A DNA stretch of 30,337 nt from Dubosiella newyorkensis (lineage in GTDB: Bacteria; Bacillota_I; Bacilli_A; Erysipelotrichales; Erysipelotrichaceae), in assembly GCF_001945605.1 (NCBI RefSeq), contig NZ_MPKA01000079.1:1-30337 (forward strand), written 5' to 3'. Both the position numbers and the translations under genes were made by a program. Positions 20,616-30,337 of this stretch are shown in pieces (the stretch's first letter is position 1; each line of letters begins with the position of its first letter). The notes beneath the pieces were generated by a model. It was not told the DNA's origin. It made no database searches and was given only the letters and a program-made list of their open reading frames with translations.

Positions 20616-22397
20616 ATGTATTATTCAAGTGGTAATTATGAGGCGTTCGCGCATCCGAGAAAGCCAAAAGATGTGGAGAAGAAATCGGCGCATTTGATCG
20701 GGAGCGGGCTTGCTTCTTTAGCGGCTGCTTGTTTTCTAGTTAGGGATGGGCAGATGCCTGGAGAGAATATTCATATTTATGAAAAGAGTGATCATGCGGG
20801 TGGCGCTTTGGATGGCGATCAGCTGCCGGATGTTGGTTATGTCATGCGGGGTGGCCGGGAAATGGATAATCATTTCGAGTGCATGTGGGATTTGTTTCGT
20901 TCGATTCCTTCGATCGAGGATGAGAACCATTCTATTTTGGATGAGTATTATTGGTTGAATAAGGATGATCCGAATTTTTCGTTGTGTCGGGCGACGATCG
21001 ATCGGGGAAAAGATGCGCATACGGATAAGAAGTTTGGTTTGTCGGACAAGGGGGCTTTGGAGATCGCGAAGTTGTTCATGATGCCGGATGAAGACTTGTA
21101 TGATGTCAAGATCACGGATGTGTTTGACGATGAAGTGTTCAATTCGAATTTCTGGCTGTATTGGAGGACGATGTTCGCGTTCAAGGACGACCAGTCGGCT
21201 TTGGAGATGAAGCGTTATATGCAGAGATATATTCATCATATTGGCGGTCTTCCTGATTTTACGGCGCTTCGTTTTACGAAGTACAACCAGAACGAGTCGA
21301 TGGTGCTTCCGATGGTGAAGTATTTGGAAGATCATGGTGTGCAGTTCCACTACAACACAGATGTGCGGGATGTGGATTTTGATATCAATGATGATTCGAT
21401 CCAGGCTACGTCTTTGACGATCAAACCGGAAGGTAAGGATGACGAGATCATCAATTTAACGGAAAACGATCTCGTATTCTATACGAACGGTTCGAATGTG
21501 GAGAATTCGACGTATGGAGCGCAGGACAAGGCGCCTGGCATGGATGGAGAGATCCACGAGGGTGGTTCGTTTGATTTGTGGCGAAAGATCGCGGTGCACT
21601 CTGACAAGTTTGGAAATCCGGATAAGTTCTGCATGGATCCGGAAGATTCGAACTGGGTGTCGGCGACTGTGAATACGTTGGATGACAAGATCATTCCGTA
21701 TATTGAAAAGATCACGAAGCGCGCGCCTTTGACTGGACATGTCGTGACAGGCGGGATCGTTTCGGTTCCGGATTCGAATTGGCTTCTTTCGTGGACGATC
21801 AATCGTCAGCCGCAATATCGCGACCAGCCAAAAGGGCAAGTGCTCGTTTGGTTGTATGGCATGTTTTCCGATCGTCCTGGCAACTTTGTGAAAAAGTCGA
21901 TGCGGGAGTGCACAGGTAAAGAAATTTGTGAAGAATGGCTGTATCATTTAGGGGTTCCTGAAGATCAGATCGAGGAAATGGCGGAAAAGAGCGCCAATAC
22001 AGTGCCTGTCATGATGCCTTTTGCGAGCGCCTACTTCCAGCCAAGAAAAGATGGCGATCGTCCAAATGTCGTTCCGAAGGGTTCGAAAAACTTCGCGTTT
22101 ATTGGAAACTTTGCCGAAACGCCTAGAGACACTGTCTTTACAACGGAGTATTCGATCCGTACGGGCATGGAGGCTGTGTATACTCTGCTAGATATCGAGC
22201 GTGGCGTTCCGGAAGTCTGGGGCAGCGTATACGATGTTCGAGATTTAATGAACGCGACCGTTCAACTTCGGGATGGCAAGCCGATCACAGATATGGATCT
22301 AGGTTTGATCAAGCGTTTTGAGTTGAAGGAAGCTCTAAAAGCGATCAAAGGCACAGAGATCGAGAAACTCATGAAGGAGCATAAGGTCATTCAATAG
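20616..22397 (+). CDS. ohyA: Oleate hydratase (MCRA / myosin-cross-reactive-antigen family, FAD-dependent)
   Basis: MYYSSGNYEAFAHPRKP...AHLIGSGLASLAAACFLVRDG...GGALDG is the canonical MCRA N-terminus with the FAD GxGxxA motif. The protein is 593 aa. The ATG at 20616 follows GGAGG. Confidence 0.9.
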   Translation: MYYSSGNYEAFAHPRKPKDVEKKSAHLIGSGLASLAAACFLVRDGQMPGENIHIYEKSDHAGGALDGDQLPDVGYVMRGGREMDNHFECMWDLFRSIPSIEDENHSILDEYYWLNKDDPNFSLCRATIDRGKDAHTDKKFGLSDKGALEIAKLFMMPDEDLYDVKITDVFDDEVFNSNFWLYWRTMFAFKDDQSALEMKRYMQRYIHHIGGLPDFTALRFTKYNQNESMVLPMVKYLEDHGVQFHYNTDVRDVDFDINDDSIQATSLTIKPEGKDDEIINLTENDLVFYTNGSNVENSTYGAQDKAPGMDGEIHEGGSFDLWRKIAVHSDKFGNPDKFCMDPEDSNWVSATVNTLDDKIIPYIEKITKRAPLTGHVVTGGIVSVPDSNWLLSWTINRQPQYRDQPKGQVLVWLYGMFSDRPGNFVKKSMRECTGKEICEEWLYHLGVPEDQIEEMAEKSANTVPVMMPFASAYFQPRKDGDRPNVVPKGSKNFAFIGNFAETPRDTVFTTEYSIRTGMEAVYTLLDIERGVPEVWGSVYDVRDLMNATVQLRDGKPITDMDLGLIKRFELKEALKAIKGTEIEKLMKEHKVIQ

Positions 22398-22423
22398 CAG
22401 TTAAAATAAAGCATATAATCACG

Positions 22424-22450
22424 AACCAGTCAGAGATGGCTGGTTTTTTA
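22424..22450 (+). terminator. Probable rho-independent terminator of the oleate hydratase gene; left edge of the AT-rich island
   Basis: Stem AACCAG (22424-22429) pairs with CTGGTT (22440-22445), followed by a T-run. Confidence 0.5.
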
Positions 22451-22673
22451 TATATTGCCTTAGAGTCAATCATCCTTTTAATTGTAAACTTAGTTGAATT
22501 ATTTCTCTCTCATTTATGCGGATATAATTTTATATGTTCAGGATATGTCATTATAATTTGTCCAATTCTTAGAAAATAAATAGAACCATTGTTTAAATTA
22601 TAATTTTGTCCCAAAAAGTAGATTTATGTCTCAGATAGGAGTATTATATGATTAAAGAGGAGTGAGTGGGGCA

Positions 22674-23711
22674 ATGAAAAAGAAATCAGTGCTGAATTTA
22701 ATAAAATATCATTTTGAAAACAATGAAAAGGCTTTTAGATCCGAAGCTTATTCTATTGCTAAGGAATTTAGCCAAACAGGTAATCAGGAATTAGCACAAT
22801 ATATTATGACGTTTCTTTCGAGTTCACAGACTTGGATACCGATGGAAACCAGTCGAAAGTATGAGTTTTTAAATCAAGTCGAGGGAAATGGGGAACCATT
22901 GTTGCTTCCAGAGCTGATTATGAATGAAATTATGGGAATCGCAAATGCGGCAAATCGAAATATGGGGGTCAATAAATTTCTGTTTGAAGGAAAACCTGGT
23001 ACTGGTAAAACGGAGGCAAGCAAGCAACTGGGAAGGATATTAAATCGTCCGGTTTATAGCGTAAGTGTCGAAACTTTGATTGACAGCAAATTGGGACAAA
23101 CTTCAAAAAATATATCTAAACTTTTTAAAGAAATTAATCAATTAGTAAAGATTGAACCATCTATTGTTTTAATTGATGAAATAGATTCTTTCGTTTCGAA
23201 TCGAATGGATCAACAGGATGTCCGAGAAATGAGTCGGGTTACATCGACGATTTTAAAACAGTTTGATCAACTTGATTATCGTGCCACAATTATCGGTACG
23301 ACTAACTTACTGAAACAACTGGACAAAGCCTTAGTAAGAAGATTTGATAAAGTTGTATCGTTTGATCAGTACACCAAGCAAGATCGAATTGAGCTTGCTG
23401 AAAAATTATTAAATCGTTATTTAGCTCAGGCAAAGATTACCACAAAGAATCTGCGTTTATTCAAAAAAATATTGGATTTGAATCTTCCTGAGACGCCTGC
23501 TGAATTAAAGAATATTATTCGTACAGCGATTGCTTTCAGCGATCCTCAGGATGAATCAGATTACCTAGTTCGTTTATATAGTTTAATTACTGAACATTCT
23601 ATTCCGGATGCTCAAGCCTTAAAAGAACAAGGTTTCACTATTCGGGAATCAGAAGTATTGCTCCAAATATCGAGGAGCACGATCAATCGTGAATTAAGGA
23701 GGGGACAATGA
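22674..23711 (+). CDS. AAA+ ATPase (classical AAA clade) with C-terminal helix-turn-helix; IetA-like partner of the downstream S8 protease
   Basis: Walker A GKPGTGKT (22989-23012), Walker B IVLIDEID (23163-23186), sensor-1 GTTN and an RRFD arginine-finger region are present. The C-terminus GFTIRESEVLLQISRSTINRELRRG looks like a resolvase-type HTH. The ATG at 22674 follows AGAGGAG; the GTG at 22662 is the alternative start. Confidence 0.85.
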   Translation: MKKKSVLNLIKYHFENNEKAFRSEAYSIAKEFSQTGNQELAQYIMTFLSSSQTWIPMETSRKYEFLNQVEGNGEPLLLPELIMNEIMGIANAANRNMGVNKFLFEGKPGTGKTEASKQLGRILNRPVYSVSVETLIDSKLGQTSKNISKLFKEINQLVKIEPSIVLIDEIDSFVSNRMDQQDVREMSRVTSTILKQFDQLDYRATIIGTTNLLKQLDKALVRRFDKVVSFDQYTKQDRIELAEKLLNRYLAQAKITTKNLRLFKKILDLNLPETPAELKNIIRTAIAFSDPQDESDYLVRLYSLITEHSIPDAQALKEQGFTIRESEVLLQISRSTINRELRRGQ

Positions 23712-25951
23712 ACAATGTTTTTGAATTACGAGGAGAGATGAATTCAAGCAAACCTAAAAAGAACCGGCCTGTCCCACAGTTGAAAGGGCTGAAAATAGAA
23801 GTGGATACGATTCGAAAGTTTAGAAATCAACTTGAAGAGATCAAACAATTCTGGGAATCGGAAAAATATCTTGATGGTGCGTTGGTAAGTATCCACTATA
23901 AACGAGTGATCCCTAAATCAAGTCGGGTCAATCGTATCCTAGGTACAAAATCGAAGCCAAGTTCTAAATTTATATGTGGAGCAAAATATGATGGGTTTGA
24001 TGAAAATAATATTGGTAAGGCTCATATTATTACCTATTATATTTCGATCGAACAATTAACTGATACGATTCAGCTTTTGAAATTTTTGGAAAATATAACA
24101 GCTACTCGATTTGAAGATACTGCTACCGAAAAAAAGGTTCGTGAGTTAAAACCTTTTTTTAAACAGAATGTTTACAGTTATTCGGAAGTTGTGCAAGGCT
24201 TAGTGGACTTAAAGGAAATTGAAACTTTTTCTATAGAAAAAGAATCTATCAATGAAAATGGGAATCATATGATTTCGTTTTATAAAACATCAACCAATCT
24301 TGATTGCTTATTTGAAAAACTGCATATTGATCCCTTGAATATTGAAAAGATCGACGAACAGACTTACGTGTTTTCAAAGCATGATATGTCTGTCATTTTA
24401 CAAGAAGTTCCTTATCTTGTTTCTATGGGCTTGCAAGATCTAAATGAAGTTTGTCCAATCCAGTTTCAGATTTCGAAACCGCTCTATGAGCTAAAAGAAA
24501 TACCTGATCCAAAGGATGAACCTGTTATTGGAGTCATTGATATGCATTTTAAAAAGGGCTCCACTTATTTAGATAAATGGGTCGATTATAAACGCGTGAC
24601 TTCTGATGAGATTGAATTAGAGGATAACGATTACGAACATGGGACGCGGGTGAGTTCCATTATCGTGGATGGGCCAAGTTTAAATCCTCATTTAGATGAT
24701 CATTGTGGTCGTTTTCGCGTTCGTCATTTCGGTATAGGAGCAAGTGGAAAATTAAATAATTCGACGGCTTTGAAACAGATTCGTGACATTATAGAAGATA
24801 ATCTTGATATTAAAGTTTGGAATATTTCGCTAGGTTCAGAATTTGAAGTCTCTCGAAATTATATGTCTGTTCAAGGGGCTTTGCTTGATGAATTGCAGTT
24901 TAAATATGATATTTTGATTATCGTTGCAGGAACGAATAAACCAGAAAAAATTGGGAATGAATCTTATCGTATTGGCAGTCCAGCAGATTCTCTTAATTCG
25001 ATCGTAGTCAACTCGGTGTCTTTAAAAAAAGAGGTGCCTTCTTATGCGCGTAAAGGTCCTGTGCTTTCTTTTTTTATAAAACCTGATGTTTCTTATTATG
25101 GAGGAACAGTTGAAGAGCCCATTCAGGTTGTGACTGCTTCTGGAGATATTACGCAAACGAGGGGTACGAGTTATGCTGCTCCTTGGATTGCCCGAAAAGC
25201 TTCTTATCTGATTGATAAAATGGGTATTTCTCGCGAAGTGGCCAAAGCATTGCTGATCGATAGTGCTGCCGGTTGGGGCAACCAGCAGAAATTTGATGTA
25301 GGTTATGGAGTTGTTCCAGTCTCTATTGATGATGTACTTCAATCAAAAGATAATGAAATTCGATTCGTAATGAGTGGAAAAATGAGAAATACTGAAATCT
25401 ATACACATCGTCTTCCAGTAAATTTGATTGATGGAAAGCATCCATTTAAAGCAAAAGTTACGATGACCTATTTTCCAAAATGCGACAGATATAGTGGCGT
25501 TGATTATTCTTGTACAGAACTTGATGTCCATTTTGGAAGAGTGTATGAGGATAAAAAAGGCAGTTTTCAAATTAAATCAATCGATGCCAATCATCAAGGA
25601 GATGATGGGATTCATGTGTGTTATGAGAAGACGGCCCGAAAAACGTTTCGGAAATGGGATAATGTGAAGCATCTTGAGGAAAAAGTCAATGAAAGATCAA
25701 AAGATGTGAAAGCGATGACTGAGAAAGGGTTCTGGGGCATTAAAATCAATGAAAAAGAAAGACAGGATGAAAAATATGGAGAAGATATTGATTTTGGATT
25801 GGTCATTACTCTCAAAGAAATACATGATGAAAACCGCTATACAGATTTTATCAACCGGTGCATTGCTCATGGATGGATCGTGAATGAAATCAATATTGAA
25901 AACAGAACAGCGATTTACAATGTTGCGGAAGAAGAAATCGAATGGGATTAA
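23708..25951 (+). CDS. Intracellular subtilisin-like serine protease (peptidase S8) with unassigned N- and C-terminal domains; IetS-like
   Basis: The ATG overlaps the ATPase stop (ATGA at 23708-23711) and RBS AAGGAGGGG lies upstream. The triad is in D-H-S order: VIGVIDMH (Asp codon 24539-24541), EHGTRVSS (His 24638-24640) and GTSYAAPW (Ser 25169-25171), with the oxyanion Asn in WNISLG. No signal peptide or TM segment is present. Confidence 0.85.
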   Translation: MNNVFELRGEMNSSKPKKNRPVPQLKGLKIEVDTIRKFRNQLEEIKQFWESEKYLDGALVSIHYKRVIPKSSRVNRILGTKSKPSSKFICGAKYDGFDENNIGKAHIITYYISIEQLTDTIQLLKFLENITATRFEDTATEKKVRELKPFFKQNVYSYSEVVQGLVDLKEIETFSIEKESINENGNHMISFYKTSTNLDCLFEKLHIDPLNIEKIDEQTYVFSKHDMSVILQEVPYLVSMGLQDLNEVCPIQFQISKPLYELKEIPDPKDEPVIGVIDMHFKKGSTYLDKWVDYKRVTSDEIELEDNDYEHGTRVSSIIVDGPSLNPHLDDHCGRFRVRHFGIGASGKLNNSTALKQIRDIIEDNLDIKVWNISLGSEFEVSRNYMSVQGALLDELQFKYDILIIVAGTNKPEKIGNESYRIGSPADSLNSIVVNSVSLKKEVPSYARKGPVLSFFIKPDVSYYGGTVEEPIQVVTASGDITQTRGTSYAAPWIARKASYLIDKMGISREVAKALLIDSAAGWGNQQKFDVGYGVVPVSIDDVLQSKDNEIRFVMSGKMRNTEIYTHRLPVNLIDGKHPFKAKVTMTYFPKCDRYSGVDYSCTELDVHFGRVYEDKKGSFQIKSIDANHQGDDGIHVCYEKTARKTFRKWDNVKHLEEKVNERSKDVKAMTEKGFWGIKINEKERQDEKYGEDIDFGLVITLKEIHDENRYTDFINRCIAHGWIVNEINIENRTAIYNVAEEEIEWD

Positions 25952-26063
25952 TGGAAAAGAAGCTCAGTGAAGATCTGAGAATCGGTATATAGTTGTTCAG
26001 GATATGCTTTCAAAGCAATACTATATATTGAAAAGATTATAAGAAGGAGTAAAAAGACGACTT

Positions 26064-27719
26064 ATGAAGATAAAAAAGATAGAATTGATTAATTTTAAAC
26101 GATTTACGCATTTAATTGTTGAAAAAATACCTGAGACGGCTAAAATGATAATTTTAGTGGGACCTAATGGCTCTGGAAAAACATCTTTTATGGAGGCACT
26201 AAATCATTATTATAAGTATACTGGATATTATGATATTGGAGATTATCATTATCTCAGTAAAATAGGTAATGAGGAGGAGCTCAACCATGATCAATGGTTT
26301 AAACGTGCATCAAAACTAGTGGATATTGACTTTCATGATATAACCCCTCCCAAAACTATTGGCAACAGTAGCGATATAAAAGGCCATTTTTATTTTCGGA
26401 GTGCATATAGAAATGAACCTGATTTTCAAATAAGTTCTATGCAAAGACAACCAGATCCTACTGAATCAATACGATTAAAAACACTTAACCAAAATGATCA
26501 AACGGTTTCTGCAAACTATCAAAGATTAGTAGCCACTACTATCTCGAGTGTATATAATGTTGAAAATGATTCAAAATCTGTTGCTACTTTACGTGAAGAA
26601 TTAACTGGAAAAATTTGTGTTGCTATTGAACACGTATTTGAGGATTTGGAGTTTTCATCTCTCGGTGAGCCTCTTAAAAATGGTAACTTCTATTTCACAA
26701 AAGGAAGTACAAAAAATTTTAACTATTGCAACCTTTCTGCTGGGGAAAAATCAGTCTTCGATTTAATTTTAGACATGGTTGTTCAATCGGAGTATTATCC
26801 AGATGCTATTTACTGTATTGATGAACCAGAGACTCATTTGCATACCAAATTACAGGGAAACGTTCTACGAGAACTGTATTTTCTTATTCCAGGAAATTCA
26901 CAGCTCTGGATTTCGACTCATTCAATTGGAATGCTACAAGAAGCAGAAGAAATTGAGAAAAAAAATCCAGGTACTGTTGTTTTTTTGGACTTTGGTGAAC
27001 GAGATTTTGACACAGATCAAGTAATTTATCCAACAAAAATTGGGAAAGCAGTATTGGAAAAGTTTTACGAACTTGCTTTCGGCGATTTTGCGAAGTTAAT
27101 GTTGCCTCGAACAATCATTTTTTGTGAAGGAGATTCAAATGGAAAAAAACGAAAGAATTTTGACAAGACGATTTATTCGACTATTTTTGCCAATACTCAT
27201 CCGGATGCATTTTTTATCTCTGGCGGTTCTTGTAATGATATAGAAAAGATTGAGAACACGCATGGAGAAATAATTAGTACACTTCTTAAAAATACTCGAG
27301 TCATTAAAATCGTAGATCGAGATAATCGCAGTGATCAAGAAATTATTGATCTCAAAAAAAAGGGGATTAGGGTCTTGAAAGAGCGAAATCTCGAATCCTA
27401 TTTGCTTGATGATACTGTAATCAAGAAATTATGTGATTCAGTTGGAAAAAGCGAAGAATATAGCGAATGTATTCGAGAAAAGAATTGTGCCCTTGTCGCT
27501 TCTATAGATAGAGGAAATGCTTTAGATGATTATAAATCAGCTAGTGGAGATATTTATAATTCGTTAAAAAAGCGACTTGCTCTTACAAAATGCGGAAACA
27601 GCGCGGATAGCTTTATTCGTGATACTCTTAGTCCATTGATTACACCTGATATGGATATTTATAAAAAACTAGAAGAAGAGATTTTTGGTAAAATGGGCGA
27701 AGAAGAAAATGACGAATAG
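26064..27719 (+). CDS. ABC-type (AAA_15/AAA_21-like) ATPase fused to a DUF4435/TOPRIM-like nuclease domain (OLD-family / merged PARIS AriA-AriB-like)
   Basis: The N-terminus MKIKKIELINFKRF and Walker A GPNGSGKT (26160-26183) are present, with signature-like LSAGEKS, Walker B IYCIDEPE (26808-26831) and H-loop ISTHS. The C-terminal domain follows with IIFCEGDS (Glu codon 27126-27128), GGSCNDI, IVDRDNR (27315-27323) and NLESYLL. Confidence 0.8.
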   Translation: MKIKKIELINFKRFTHLIVEKIPETAKMIILVGPNGSGKTSFMEALNHYYKYTGYYDIGDYHYLSKIGNEEELNHDQWFKRASKLVDIDFHDITPPKTIGNSSDIKGHFYFRSAYRNEPDFQISSMQRQPDPTESIRLKTLNQNDQTVSANYQRLVATTISSVYNVENDSKSVATLREELTGKICVAIEHVFEDLEFSSLGEPLKNGNFYFTKGSTKNFNYCNLSAGEKSVFDLILDMVVQSEYYPDAIYCIDEPETHLHTKLQGNVLRELYFLIPGNSQLWISTHSIGMLQEAEEIEKKNPGTVVFLDFGERDFDTDQVIYPTKIGKAVLEKFYELAFGDFAKLMLPRTIIFCEGDSNGKKRKNFDKTIYSTIFANTHPDAFFISGGSCNDIEKIENTHGEIISTLLKNTRVIKIVDRDNRSDQEIIDLKKKGIRVLKERNLESYLLDDTVIKKLCDSVGKSEEYSECIREKNCALVASIDRGNALDDYKSASGDIYNSLKKRLALTKCGNSADSFIRDTLSPLITPDMDIYKKLEEEIFGKMGEEENDE

Positions 27720-27914
27720 AAAAATGAAGATAGAATCGATCAATATTATCGCTTAAAATGTTATGTTATTTCAAATAAGGCTAACTAAGGCTATTGATGA
27801 AAACAAACCGGAGAACAATCAACTATGAATTTCTAAAATTGATGGTATGTCAAGCTAAAATACAATCTAAATTTCTATTTTTTACAAATTGGAAGATTTT
27901 GTTTCGCTTTCCAT

Positions 27915-28250
27915 TGACTACGGGTCCTCATCTCTAAGAATCCATTTTTTGTTGATTTTCAGACTCCCAGCTTTTGCTGCGGTTTGAAAAGCTCCTAGCT
28001 TATCTTAGGGATCCTCATCGTCAAAGCCGCTTCCTAGTTTTATCTGAACGCAACGTTTTCAATATCTTGTAGTTGTTCTCATATTCCATCGAGGATTCGT
28101 ATCCGTAATGAAATGGATACGAATCCTATTATAGAATTCTTCTGTATATTTGAATATAGCTTTCTTTGCTTCTTTCATGATCGAATAGACGTATTTATAG
28201 TGCCATTAGGTTTCTAGCTGGTGGAGGATTTGATGAATTAATATTTGTGA
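27915..28250 (-). pseudogene. Decayed IS3-family transposase (OrfB C-terminus) remnant with possible terminal repeat
   Basis: The minus-strand reading gives ...ILHQLET*WHYKYVYSIMKEAKKAIFKYTEEFYNRIRIHFITDTNPRWNMRTTTRY*. This resembles the IS3 integrase C-terminal motif (...EEA..AIFEYIE.FYNR.R.HS.LGY.SP) but carries in-frame stops. A possible end TGACTACGGGTCC lies at 27915-27927. Confidence 0.45.
28092..28127. repeat. Perfect 13-bp inverted repeat (hairpin) inside the IS3 remnant
   Basis: AGGATTCGTATCC (28092-28104) and GGATACGAATCCT (28115-28127) flank a 10-nt loop. No T-run follows on either strand. Confidence 0.8.
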
Positions 28251-28456
28251 TTAGTATAGCTTTTTAAGTTATAAGGTAAATGCCAGAATGTTTGTTCCTT
28301 AAATTCTTTGTCATATTACTTTTCCATTTTTCATTTCTCCTTATTATAGAGATCAAGTTATGCTTTTTATAATGTTTTACTCCTTTAGTTTTCAGAGGTT
28401 TAAGCGACACAGTAATAATACTAGACTCACAGGTAGTGAGATTCCGCTTTTTATTT

Positions 28457-28501
28457 GGGTAACCAAATAACTAAGGGGGGATTCTCGAAATATTTTGGGT
28501 T
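28457..28501 (+). repeat. Direct repeat copy 1 (upstream of the TA module)
   Basis: GGGTAACCAAATAACTAAGGGGGGATTCTCGAAATATTTTGGGTT. The first 14 nt are identical to 29378-29391. Overall identity to copy 2 is roughly 80 percent with one indel. Confidence 0.8.
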
Positions 28502-28678
28502 ATTTTCATATTGGAGATAATGTTTATGAACAGATTTTAAATAAGTATATTACGTTTGGTATATAAAATCTTATATGAAATGAATTTATATCAGTAGATT
28601 AGCTGATAAATTTGGGAATAATAGTTTAGATAAAATAAGGTTTTTGGTATACTTATCTGTAATAAAAGGAGTTATTTT

Positions 28679-29002
28679 ATGAATGATCTATCGAACATAA
28701 TTAATAAAACGGTTTCTATTTCTATATTTAATCGTGGTCGTGCTGGTCAAGTCTTCTCGGATGTAAAAAAACGCGGATCGTTGGTTGTTCTAAAAAATAA
28801 TGAACCTGAATGTGTTCTTTTATCTCCAAAAGAATATGTTTCTTTAATGGATGAGTTGAATGATATGAGATTAGAACTTCTTGCGACACAAAGGATGCAC
28901 AATACAGATTTATCGGCTACTATTCCTGCTGAAGATGTTTACAAGAATCTTGGAATTGATCTCAATGATCTAGAATGTTTTGATGAGGTAGAACTAGATT
29001 GA
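28679..29002 (+). CDS. Type II antitoxin, Phd/YefM family
   Basis: ISIFNRGRAGQVFSDVKKRGSLVVLKNNEPECVLLSPKEYVSLMDELNDMRLELLA is a Phd/YefM-type N-terminal fold. RBS AAAGGAG lies upstream. The stop overlaps the toxin start. Confidence 0.8.
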   Translation: MNDLSNIINKTVSISIFNRGRAGQVFSDVKKRGSLVVLKNNEPECVLLSPKEYVSLMDELNDMRLELLATQRMHNTDLSATIPAEDVYKNLGIDLNDLECFDEVELD

Positions 29003-29328
29003 GCTGGAATGTAAAGTTTTTACCTGAAGCACAAGATGATTTGTTTTCTCTTGACAAGAGTCAGCAGAAGCTTGTCGTTAAAGCAATTCAAAAAGTAAAA
29101 CAGAATCCGCTTTCTTCTCGAGAAGGAGGCTATGGTAAACCTCTGGGCAATAAACGAGCCAATAAACTTTCTGGTTTTTTGAAGATCAAACTTCGCTCTG
29201 CAGGTATTCGTGTGGTTTATCAACCTATTAAGACAGAATCAGAAATGTTAATCATCATTATCGGAGTTAGGGAAGATAATGAAGTTTATGAAGTTGCTGG
29301 CAAAAGAATTAAAAAGCATAAATTATAG
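28999..29328 (+). CDS. Type II toxin, RelE/ParE (RelE/StbE-like) family
   Basis: The TTG start overlaps the antitoxin stop (TTGA). WNVKFLPEAQDDLFSLDKSQQKLVVKAIQKVKQNP...LSGFLKIKLRSAGIRVVYQ...MLIIIIGVREDNEVY is the canonical RelE/ParE pattern. Confidence 0.8.
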   Translation: MSWNVKFLPEAQDDLFSLDKSQQKLVVKAIQKVKQNPLSSREGGYGKPLGNKRANKLSGFLKIKLRSAGIRVVYQPIKTESEMLIIIIGVREDNEVYEVAGKRIKKHKL

Positions 29329-29377
29329 TGGCAAACTATTATAACTGGTAATAAAGATTGAAAATAGCGTTTATAAA

Positions 29378-29421
29378 GGGTAACCAAATAATTCAGGGGG
29401 GACTTAAAATATTTCGGGGTT
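29378..29421 (+). repeat. Direct repeat copy 2 (downstream of the TA module, ~60 bp beyond the ISL3 transposase stop; possibly an IS terminal repeat)
   Basis: GGGTAACCAAATAATTCAGGGGGGACTTAAAATATTTCGGGGTT. It is in the same orientation as copy 1. Confidence 0.8.
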
Positions 29422-29479
29422 TGATGATCGAATGTAGATATCAAGTTAAAAATGTACAAATTCGATGAGATAAAAATGC

Positions 29480-29826
29480 TCAATTTTGTTTGAAAGATAC
29501 TGAAGGATCTTTTCTCTCTGCCCAAAGAATGAGATTGCGTATATAATCGAAATTGGAAGTTCCTCTAGCATTCTTTTTGTAGTCTTTGGGTTTTCTGTTG
29601 AATGATTCCATAGGGCCGTTCGAGAGCCGTGCATAGTAGGTTTCAAGATCCTTTGATCCTTTTCTTGAAACTTCGGCTACTGTAAAAGAAAGTGCGATTT
29701 CTTTTTTGTGGGCTTTCAAGAACTGTGCGAATTCGACGAAGACCTGCTGATCGGATTATTTGTATTTTTGGATCAGGGCTTCGGGTGTTCTAGAGGCTTC
29801 CTCTGTTGTTGGATAAAAAACGTGTC
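29480..29826 (-). pseudogene. Truncated ISL3-family transposase (C-terminal fragment with in-frame stop)
   Basis: The minus-strand reading gives ...TTEEASRTPEALIQKYK*SDQQVFVEFAQFLKAHKKEIALSF...YYARLSNGPMESFNRKPKDYKKNARGTSNFDYIRNLILWA. This matches the ISL3 C-terminal signature (SNGP.EG.N.KIK..KR...G..NF...R.RIL). About 115 codons remain, with a TAA inside. Confidence 0.6.
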
Positions 29827-29961
29827 ATTGAAAGCGAGATATTATTCTTCGACAATATAAAAGAATCATTGTCGGGGAGGCTGAAATGACCGAAAAGATA
29901 AGAATAATCAGCAGATATGAAAAAACCTCTTAAAATAAATCTAATATGGATACCCGAATCT

Positions 29962-29990
29962 AAAGCCAAGCGGAAGTTTGGCTTTTTTTG
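29962..29990 (+). terminator. Orphan terminator-like hairpin
   Basis: Stem AAAGCCAA (29962-29969) pairs with TTGGCTTT (29978-29985), followed by a T-run. No convincing upstream gene exists on the plus strand. Confidence 0.45.
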
Positions 29991-30101
29991 TTATTTCCTA
30001 ACCACTCTTTTTGTGATGTTTACTATAAATCATAATGACATCCAAGAAATATTCTATTATGATGATAGTATTAGAACGTTAAGGAAGAAAAGAAAAAGGT
30101 T

Positions 30102-30233
30102 ATGAAGAAAAATACGATTGCGATCATCGATTCGATCAAAGAAAAATTTTCGAATTATATTTATTCGACTTTTACATTAGAGGATGTGAAAGATCAAGGT
30201 AAGCGGGAATTAAAACAGCGGGTAGCAGCCTGA
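30102..30233 (+). CDS. Short hypothetical ORF (43 aa), possibly the truncated 5' part of a larger gene
   Basis: ATG at 30102; MKKNTIAIIDSIKEKFSNYIYSTFTLEDVKDQGKRELKQRVAA*. The composition returns to core-like (GATC-rich). It was below the track cut-off and I read it by hand. Confidence 0.3.
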   Translation: MKKNTIAIIDSIKEKFSNYIYSTFTLEDVKDQGKRELKQRVAA

Positions 30234-30273
30234 TGAAAGTTAAAGTAGAGTAACCACAGGAGGTGGCTACCCT

Positions 30274-30337
30274 ATGGAAACGAATACCACTGCTCATAAT
30301 GAAGATCTTGTATTTACCGAGATTCCTTTTCCAAAAA
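30274..30337 (+). CDS. 5' end of an unidentified CDS (partial, runs off the window)
   Basis: AGGAGG (30258-30263) lies 10 nt before the ATG at 30274. METNTTAHNEDLVFTEIPFPK... stays open to the window end. Confidence 0.4.
   Translation, partial: METNTTAHNEDLVFTEIPFPK

Follow-up and report, generated by a model that had tools for sequence, protein, structure and literature searches.

A single-gene ATPase-TOPRIM fusion with PARIS-like features beside an IetAS pair in Dubosiella newyorkensis

PARIS is an anti-phage system that is often carried on P4 satellites, and in its two-gene form (AriA + AriB of E. coli B185; PDB 8ux9, 8v45) it combines an ATP-binding cassette (ABC) ATPase with a TOPRIM nuclease of the DUF4435 family. 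We analysed a gene, here called X, that encodes both of these parts in one chain, as do the merged PARIS proteins; it lies on contig NZ_MPKA01000079.1 of Dubosiella newyorkensis, in a stretch of 30,337 nucleotides that we refer to as the window. PARIS has been filed as class 4 of the "OLD-like" systems (PMC11464382), of which OLD and GajA of Gabija make up classes 1-2. It senses the anti-restriction protein Ocr through AriA, upon which AriB cuts tRNA-Lys (PMC11464382). Ocr inhibits restriction-modification of Type I as well as of Type III (bioRxiv 10.1101/2023.04.06.535777), and PARIS and PrrC have been called restriction-modification guardians (PMC12707154). Other pairs of an ATPase and a TOPRIM protein are RloAB, which is sited in Type I loci (PMC13064643), and MADS3-4 (PMC11464382). 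As an initial annotation of this locus stated, fused AriA-AriB forms have been catalogued (PMC9122126, PMC11464382), and they are known as AriAB or merged PARIS (DefenseFinder PARIS_I_merge and PARIS_II_merge; PADLOC PDLC02981 and PDLC02982).

Our preferred reading, to which we give a probability of roughly two in three, is that X is an autonomous one-protein anti-phage module of ABC ATPase and TOPRIM nuclease, PARIS-like in kind, with a mechanism that we infer. The family to which it belongs is found chiefly within Type I and Type III restriction-modification operons, and the window copy has been displaced from such an operon and is nevertheless selectively maintained, which we consider to be the main added value of this analysis.

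Gene X and its nuclease half

A search of the NCBI protein database returns an entry 100% identical to the X protein, "ATP-binding protein [Dubosiella newyorkensis]", and the RefSeq name of the gene is "ATP-binding protein" and nothing more. Reading the letters of the DNA, the initial annotation had described a single-chain fusion of an ABC ATPase and a DUF4435-type TOPRIM domain. This description stands, as one open reading frame of 551 amino acids (aa) holds both, with the ATPase first. The features of X, all on the + strand, are:

26064..27719, + strand: gene X, fused ABC-ATPase / DUF4435-TOPRIM, open reading frame of 551 aa with Pfam and PADLOC matches
26064..27038, + strand: ABC/SMC-type ATPase domain, residues 1-325 (AAA_15, AAA_21, conserved motifs, Foldseek)
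aa 1-14, + strand: motif MKIKKIELINFKRF (sequence inspection)
26160-26183, + strand: Walker A GPNGSGKT, aa 33-40, with the K39 codon at 26178-26180
26505..26636, + strand: predicted helical hairpin inserted in the ATPase domain, residues 148-191 (model helices 148-163 and 173-191)
26733-26753, + strand: ABC signature LSAGEKS, aa 224-230
26808-26831, + strand: Walker B IYCIDEPE, aa 249-256
26913-26924, + strand: H-loop STHS, aa 284-287
27111..27464, + strand: TOPRIM core of DUF4435 type, residues 350-467 (Pfam, PADLOC, domain model, invariant residues)
aa 353-358, + strand: FCEGDS, with the Glu355 codon at 27126-27128
27162-27164, + strand: Asp367 of the TOPRIM core
aa 387-389, + strand: GGS
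aa 417-420, + strand: VDRD, with Asp418 at 27315-27317 and Asp420 at 27321-27323
aa 444-448, + strand: ESYLL, with Glu444 at 27393-27395
27411..27686, + strand: conserved C-terminal helical domain, residues 450-541 (model helices 450-459, 463-482, 490-504, 514-525 and 531-541)

The reading frame and all nine motifs of the initial annotation are real and lie where it had placed them, and its codon ranges are exact (27126-27128 for Glu355, and 27315-27323 for Asp-Arg-Asp 418-420). The two ATPase families that it named, AAA_15 (E=1.2e-18, 68.4 bits, cut-off 32.1) and AAA_21 (E=2e-18, 68.0 bits, cut-off 27), both score above their curated Pfam cut-offs on X. Across 40 homologues of 28-67% identity, the invariant residues are G33, G36, G38, K39, S225, G227, E228, D253, H258 and Q280 in the ATPase part, and E355, G356, D367, D418 and D420 in the TOPRIM part; E254 of Walker B is invariant or nearly so, and H286 and E444 recur in at least 90% of these homologues. 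Because the ATPase and TOPRIM residues are invariant or nearly so, both activities of X are under selection. The helical tail carries an invariant DDxK at 488-491 in the columns of the homologue alignment, and lies outside the alignment to the DUF4435 model, which ends at about position 114 of 238. The family is large, with 334 representatives of 50%-identity clusters at E<=1e-30; its members are nearly all 530-555 aa long and aligned from residue 1 to about 542, and the order of ATPase then TOPRIM is kept in full-length homologues.

For the fusion as a whole, the initial annotation had offered the label "OLD-family or merged PARIS-like". The PARIS-like part of this label holds for the nuclease domain, while the catalogued merged forms are only distant kin of X. 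The PADLOC AriAB model matches X at E=2.4e-32. When the C-terminal domains of 30 family members were searched, each of the two AriAB models matched 22 of them and AriB matched 14, and the other PADLOC matches were single-member ones to HEC-01B and PbeC. None of the PADLOC models for OLD, GajA (Gabija), AbiLii, MAD4 or the retron TOPRIM matched any of the 30 domains; the GajA profiles match the ATPase part of X only, and MAD3 matches the ATPase half (E=1.5e-19). In Pfam, OLD-like_TOPRIM (PF20469) has no match in whole X (E<=0.1) or in the 30 domains (E<=0.01), RloB has none in the 30 domains, and the sole family found there is DUF4435, in 9 of the 30 at E<=0.01. On X itself, DUF4435 (PF14491) reaches 25.0 bits in the whole protein, below its 27-bit cut-off (residues 351-467 against model positions 4-113 of 238), and 27.8 bits against that cut-off of 27 when the C-terminal 222 aa are searched alone, with about half of the model covered. 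The nuclease families proposed for comparison thus gave a borderline match to DUF4435 and none to OLD-like_TOPRIM. Since the PADLOC matches are to PARIS models and Pfam offers DUF4435 alone, we assign the nuclease domain of X to the PARIS/DUF4435 type.

Merged PARIS is the closest described layout, as it has AAA_15/AAA_21 and DUF4435 in one chain, and in PADLOC the nuclease half of X is matched best by the two merged-PARIS profiles. On PDLC02981, X reaches 110.5 bits in an alignment to positions 235-542 of 694, and on PDLC02982 it reaches 61.8 bits in one to positions 326-431 of 570. In calibration, a 720-aa Lichenicola plasmid protein scores 656 bits on the former (655.8; positions 1-693 of 694) and a 533-aa Pseudoalteromonas plasmid protein scores 518 bits on the latter (518.2; positions 45-569 of 570). 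By BLASTP, X is 27-29% identical to these two true merged proteins (E=3e-13 and 6e-17) over part of its length, along a contiguous stretch that runs from Walker B through the domain junction to the TOPRIM core. Thresholds of 80 and 20 bits have been published for detection with the merged profiles (PMC9122126). As X scores above both values, automatic tools would most likely label it PARIS, a comparison that assumes the PADLOC models to be the published merged profiles, as their lengths suggest. Judged by sequence comparison, X is not close to either catalogued merged PARIS family and is a member of a third, divergent and large family (~540 aa) that shares the merged-PARIS fusion architecture. 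It differs from the catalogued forms in its compact ATPase of ~325 aa, in the C-terminal helical domain beyond DUF4435, and in having a large family of its own. The family is also native to restriction-modification operons, a context that we did not find stated for merged PARIS in the literature searched.

Compared with two-gene PARIS, the acidic residues of X can be paired with those of AriB. AriB has E26, D88/E90 and E122 (PMC11464382), and X has E355, D418/D420 and E444; the spacing from the Glu to the first Asp is 63 residues in X and 62 in AriB. This correspondence comes from order and spacing, rather than from residue-level superposition, and X has DxD where AriB has DxE. In sequence, the likeness to AriA is marginal and AriB is undetectable by hidden Markov model: a PDB sequence search with whole X found weak ATPase matches only (PtuA, E=1.6e-3; AriA, E=0.074), a search with the C-terminal 222 aa found nothing at E<=10, and a search with a 30-sequence profile of the C-terminal domain found spurious helical-repeat matches only. 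The full-length model of X (AlphaFold with 51 sequences; predicted local distance difference test score, pLDDT, 86.6) has a predicted ATPase head at 1-325, a linker of lower confidence at about 330-350, a TOPRIM core of four strands at 350-437 and a helical tail at 450-541. Its modelled ATPase part, of ~325 residues with a ~45-residue hairpin, compares with an AriA chain of 464 residues, and AriA carries the long insertions IS1/IS2 (PMC11464382). X is without such long insertions, and its short hairpin at 148-191 may stand where AriA has them.

An unlikely alternative is that X acts as the class 1/2 proteins OLD and GajA do, with an ATP-gated TOPRIM that would cut DNA, of phage or host, upon a trigger such as the nucleotide pool or DNA ends. 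The single-chain layout of an ABC ATPase followed by TOPRIM is the same, and in Foldseek the top matches of the whole X model are GajA (8sm3_A, E=3.3e-10), PtuA, SMC heads and OLD of Thermus scotoductus (6p74, E=3.0e-9). When the C-terminal domain was modelled alone (pLDDT 90.5), the top PDB match was AriB of the PARIS complex (8ux9_A, E=3.6e-3, probability 0.99), and OLD C-terminal regions matched about as well, at E=4e-3 to 1.5e-2 (6nk8_B, E=4.4e-3; 6njw, template-modelling (TM) score 0.43); the TM-scores of these matches are low, from 0.36 (AriB) to 0.43. A comparison with viral structures (BFVD) gave nothing significant, with an RloB-like protein at E=0.29. The DxD of X is also the canonical one of DNA-acting TOPRIM domains, unlike D88/E90 of AriB. 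However, the OLD/GajA explanation has to contend with the absence of a PF20469 signal from X and the 30 C-terminal domains, which among the PADLOC models are matched almost only by those of PARIS and not by those of GajA, OLD or the retron TOPRIM, and with the homology to merged PARIS that runs across the domain junction. X also differs from Gabija in being without an adjacent UvrD-type helicase partner.

Restriction-modification operons and the displaced copy

The homologues of X at 67-81% identity sit in Type III restriction-modification operons with the order SNF2 helicase - DUF4391 - X - mod - (variable gene) - res, in which stop and start codons often overlap. Of the metagenome loci in which X is 67-78% identical, 24 of 28 have Type III genes beside it, as do 9 of 10 genome loci (from Ruminococcaceae, Phascolarctobacterium, Lachnospiraceae, Treponema, Synergistaceae, Eubacteriales and others). 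In PADLOC, mod of the embedding operon matches the Type III methyltransferase (E=8e-204), res the Type III restriction endonuclease (E=3e-283), and the helicase the "HKD+Snf2" model (E=4.9e-123). We considered Hma as an identity for this operon and rejected it, as the SNF2 protein matches HmaA weakly (E=1.3e-25) and mod and res are plain Type III. More distant members (41-52% identity) are found in Type I operons, with hsdS on one side and hsdR on the other, a dozen metagenome loci among them, and other homologues are beside other restriction or defence genes, or stand alone.

This placement (hsdS-X-hsdR in Type I, and within Type III operons) is the same kind of slot as is held by PrrC in EcoprrI, by RloA/RloB in Campylobacter Type I loci and by MADS3-4. 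The proteins themselves differ: the nuclease half of X is without an RloB Pfam match or a MAD4 PADLOC match, and X is without a PrrC-type anticodon-nuclease domain. Unlike these embedded guards, the window copy of X is no longer inside a restriction-modification operon, and we found no restriction-modification gene in ~10 kb upstream of it or among the open reading frames downstream.

The window copy carries traces of this setting. By blastn, its homology to the operon copies runs from ~26027 to ~27750 only, which is the X reading frame plus a few tens of bases. The end of the spacer before X, 26027-26063 (~37 bp), aligns with the 3' end of DUF4391, the gene in front of X in restriction-modification operons, the alignment with locus L001 beginning at 26027. 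On the other side there is a candidate relic:

27724..27756, + strand: possible relic of a Type III mod gene, 5' end (MKIESINIIA-stop), which aligns with the mod starts of operon copies; tentative

Blastn alignments from two loci, L018 and L006, extend to 27737 and 27746. The same 22 nt of this stretch are 86% identical to X codons 5-11, so the relic assignment is tentative. Clearer remnants flank orphan copies at 82% identity, which have a 78-79-aa C-terminal fragment of DUF4391 upstream and a 53-61-aa N-terminal fragment of Mod downstream; such relic-flanked orphans are on many contigs (P0003 in 81 blocks of the collection, P0006 in 73). In a rough neighbour-joining tree, the window copy and that of the sister-lineage locus L120 group with the relic-flanked orphans, nested within the Type III-embedded clade. 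Comparison with the operon copies shows, at the level of sequence, that the window copy descends from a Type III operon copy that was excised almost exactly at the limits of the reading frame.

It could be argued that X needs its restriction-modification complex, as PrrC needs EcoprrI (PMC12707154), and that the window copy is an inert or decaying leftover. The closest clade is indeed firmly built into operons in which stop and start codons overlap, and no restriction-modification gene was found in ~10 kb upstream of the window copy or among the downstream reading frames. We think this explanation very improbable, because between the window and L120, that is, since the split of the two IetAS-linked lineages, the ratio of nonsynonymous to synonymous substitution rates (dN/dS) of X is 0.11 over 550 codons (dS 0.74), with 0.12 in the ATPase half and 0.10 in the nuclease half, and the catalytic residues are all intact. 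There are also several independent stand-alone copies (Zymomonas plasmid pZMOB01; L044, L055, L104), in addition to the many relic-flanked orphans. Judged by selection, the window copy is not decaying and is still functional. A plasmid search with X gave three matches only, and tblastn of X against 50,697 phage records gave no match.

Several other arrangements were observed around the family. The slot between mod and res in X-bearing Type III operons is variable, and holds Abi_C with DUF1016/PDC-S02, or RES with DUF1016, or nothing (L025 10576-12504; L029 10691-12659; L026); together with the slot of X, this indicates that Type III operons collect accessory defence genes at two positions. Directly downstream of the X-containing Type III operon in L121 (13683-15653) and L122 (11442-13412) there is a Gabija-like pair, made up of a 548-aa ATPase with OLD-like_TOPRIM and a UvrD helicase, so that two different ATPase-TOPRIM systems stand side by side. 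Type I operons have more genes inserted between X and hsdR: in L034 (9620-13557) an 851-aa HATPase_c_3 protein and a methyltransferase-like gene, and in L036 (9622-11028) a Schlafen/AlbA_2 protein. In L104 (5975-12294), the homologue of X (51% identity) has an Hsp70 gene on one side and an Hsp90-like HATPase gene on the other, which is odd for a defence gene.

The IetAS pair and the surrounding island

The initial annotation proposed that X is a second, nuclease-based defence module, and added that it might form a three-gene unit with the ATPase-protease pair upstream. The first proposal is borne out by the identification of that pair as IetA and IetS in PADLOC, which makes X a second and separate defence module. 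The features upstream of X are:

22592..25949, + strand: ietAS module, from ~70 bp upstream of ietA to the ietS stop, with bounds shared with a lineage that has no X
22662-23711, + strand: ietA (PADLOC IetA, E=4.1e-39)
23708-25951, + strand: ietS (PADLOC IetS, E=4e-71)
25952..26063, + strand: ietS-X spacer of 112 bp, with a ribosome-binding site AAGAAGGAG at 26041-26049

On the NCBIfam models, the window pair falls well short of the equivalog cut-offs (IteA 106 against 510, IteS 180 against 900), and it is therefore a divergent IetAS.

The idea that ietA, ietS and X make up one three-gene system, in which for example the protease or the AAA+ ATPase would control the nuclease, has some support in the window. 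The genes are on the same strand, and the 112-bp spacer, as had been noted, has no terminator on the + strand; nor did the scan, at its threshold, match a promoter there. Among the non-identical homologues of X, the closest, that of L120 (85% identity), shares its ietA-ietS neighbours, and window positions 22602-27744 are colinear with L120 at 82% nucleotide identity, with all three reading frames intact and under purifying selection. However, the idea fails in the survey of other loci, and we regard it as most improbable. The survey covered ~115 X-homologue loci outside this lineage (10 genome and 80 metagenome loci, the rest with Pfam gene tables), and IetA/IetS stood beside X in none of the 10 genome and 80 metagenome loci and in none of the other Pfam-listed ones; the adjacency is present only in contigs of Dubosiella newyorkensis and in the one sister lineage, L120. 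Conversely, a third ietAS lineage (IetS 86% identical; six contigs, L127-L132) is at a different chromosomal site and without X. Its homology to the window covers 22592-25949 only and ends at the ietS stop codon, and 117 bp after ietS comes the gene of an unrelated protein of 330 aa, apparently secreted, for which neither Pfam nor PADLOC gives a match. PADLOC models IetAS as two proteins, IetA and IetS. It is reportedly a two-gene system in function as well, as Gao et al. are said to have found in 2020. By these sequence comparisons, ietAS and X are two separate modules, brought together a single time in an ancestor shared by the two sister lineages; transcription may still read through from ietAS into X.

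Two further observations concern these modules. The ietAS genes form a discrete 3.36-kb module, with the same span in three lineages (IetS 86-100% identical) at two chromosomal sites. The dS values between the window and L120 differ by gene (ietA 1.53, ietS 1.09, X 0.74); X might have been exchanged more recently, or codon usage alone may account for the gap.

The G+C content is about 0.44-0.47 up to the terminator of MCRA, an oleate hydratase-like gene; directly beyond this, at ~22.4 kb, the content drops to 0.31-0.38, and it does not recover before the window ends. The low-G+C stretch 22400-30337 is a foreign defence island, whose right border is beyond the window; it is small and assembled from separate modules. 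Housekeeping genes lie upstream, and the order within the island is ietAS, X, a gap of about 920-960 bp, and then two further features:

28679-29328: Phd/ParE toxin-antitoxin pair (Pfam)
29480-29719, - strand: ISL3 transposase remnant, a 79-aa open reading frame on the right-hand side of the island (last 60 positions of PF01610, E=4.9e-7)

The gap (27757-28678) has no open reading frame of at least 60 aa, no Rfam match and no blastn match to plasmids. A 39-aa open reading frame in it (28059-28178, - strand) was considered as a transposase C-terminus and dropped, as Pfam did not confirm it. The 25-nt direct repeats GGGTAACCAAATAAnTnAGGGGGGA at 28457-28481 and 29378-29402, identical at 23 of 25 positions, bracket the Phd/ParE pair as if it were a separately inserted cassette. 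Such pairs are also beside X in L017-L024, and we dropped Phd/ParE as a recurrent partner of X, since no relation between the pairs could be detected at E<=1e-5. An Rfam search of 22300-30337 and a search for tRNA genes over the whole window were both empty, as was blastn of 29330-30337 against plasmids.

Proposed mechanism and meaning

As a one-protein, PARIS-like module, X would work as follows. The N-terminal ATPase, probably a dimer or higher oligomer, would be the sensor and would hold the metal-dependent TOPRIM nuclease at the C-terminus inactive. The signal would be a phage product, in the most plausible case an anti-restriction protein, that would alter the state of the ATPase and so unleash the nuclease, which may stop translation by cutting tRNA as AriB does, or, less likely, may cut DNA, and the infected cell would arrest. 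In two-gene PARIS the nuclease can be released from the AriA hexamer; in X this is impossible, as ATPase and nuclease are one chain, and activation should be a conformational or oligomeric switch instead. A logic of guarding against anti-restriction is plausibly shared by both, and the position within operons would suit a back-up guard. The substrate is the weakest step of this scheme, given that the modelled fold and the DxD would fit OLD-type DNA nucleases about as well as AriB.

Several points weigh against this reading of X. The DUF4435 match sits on its cut-off and covers half of the model, the scores on the catalogued merged-PARIS profiles are low and partial next to those of true members, and hidden Markov model searches of the PDB find neither AriB nor OLD for the nuclease half. 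The predicted fold resembles AriB weakly (TM 0.36), and OLD C-terminal regions about as much. Because the window is without restriction-modification genes near X, a guard role tied to such a partner cannot apply in cis, and the putative mod relic, which would link this copy to an operon, is short and ambiguous. No report of a tested merged PARIS form was found in the literature searched.

A wider and more tentative proposal, which we think possible though somewhat less likely to be right than wrong, is that the ~540-aa family is the TOPRIM counterpart of PrrC: an ancestral guard in Type I and Type III operons that would fire upon anti-restriction, and whose orphans would have escaped, work alone and spread as a one-gene cassette between defence islands. 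No new principle is involved in any of this, as fused PARIS forms and restriction-modification-linked guards have already been described. What the window holds is two independent defence modules, IetAS and a one-gene PARIS-like nuclease, and not a novel three-gene system. Beyond the window there is a large, unstudied family of ATPase-TOPRIM fusions, mostly embedded in Type III and Type I operons of several phyla, and this embedding agrees with the "guardian of restriction" idea put forward for PARIS and PrrC. The relic-flanked orphans, which are under purifying selection, indicate a compact system of one gene with no partner to release. If the wider proposal is true, the family would offer a simple one-protein system in which to ask how an ABC ATPase activates a nuclease that is covalently joined to it.

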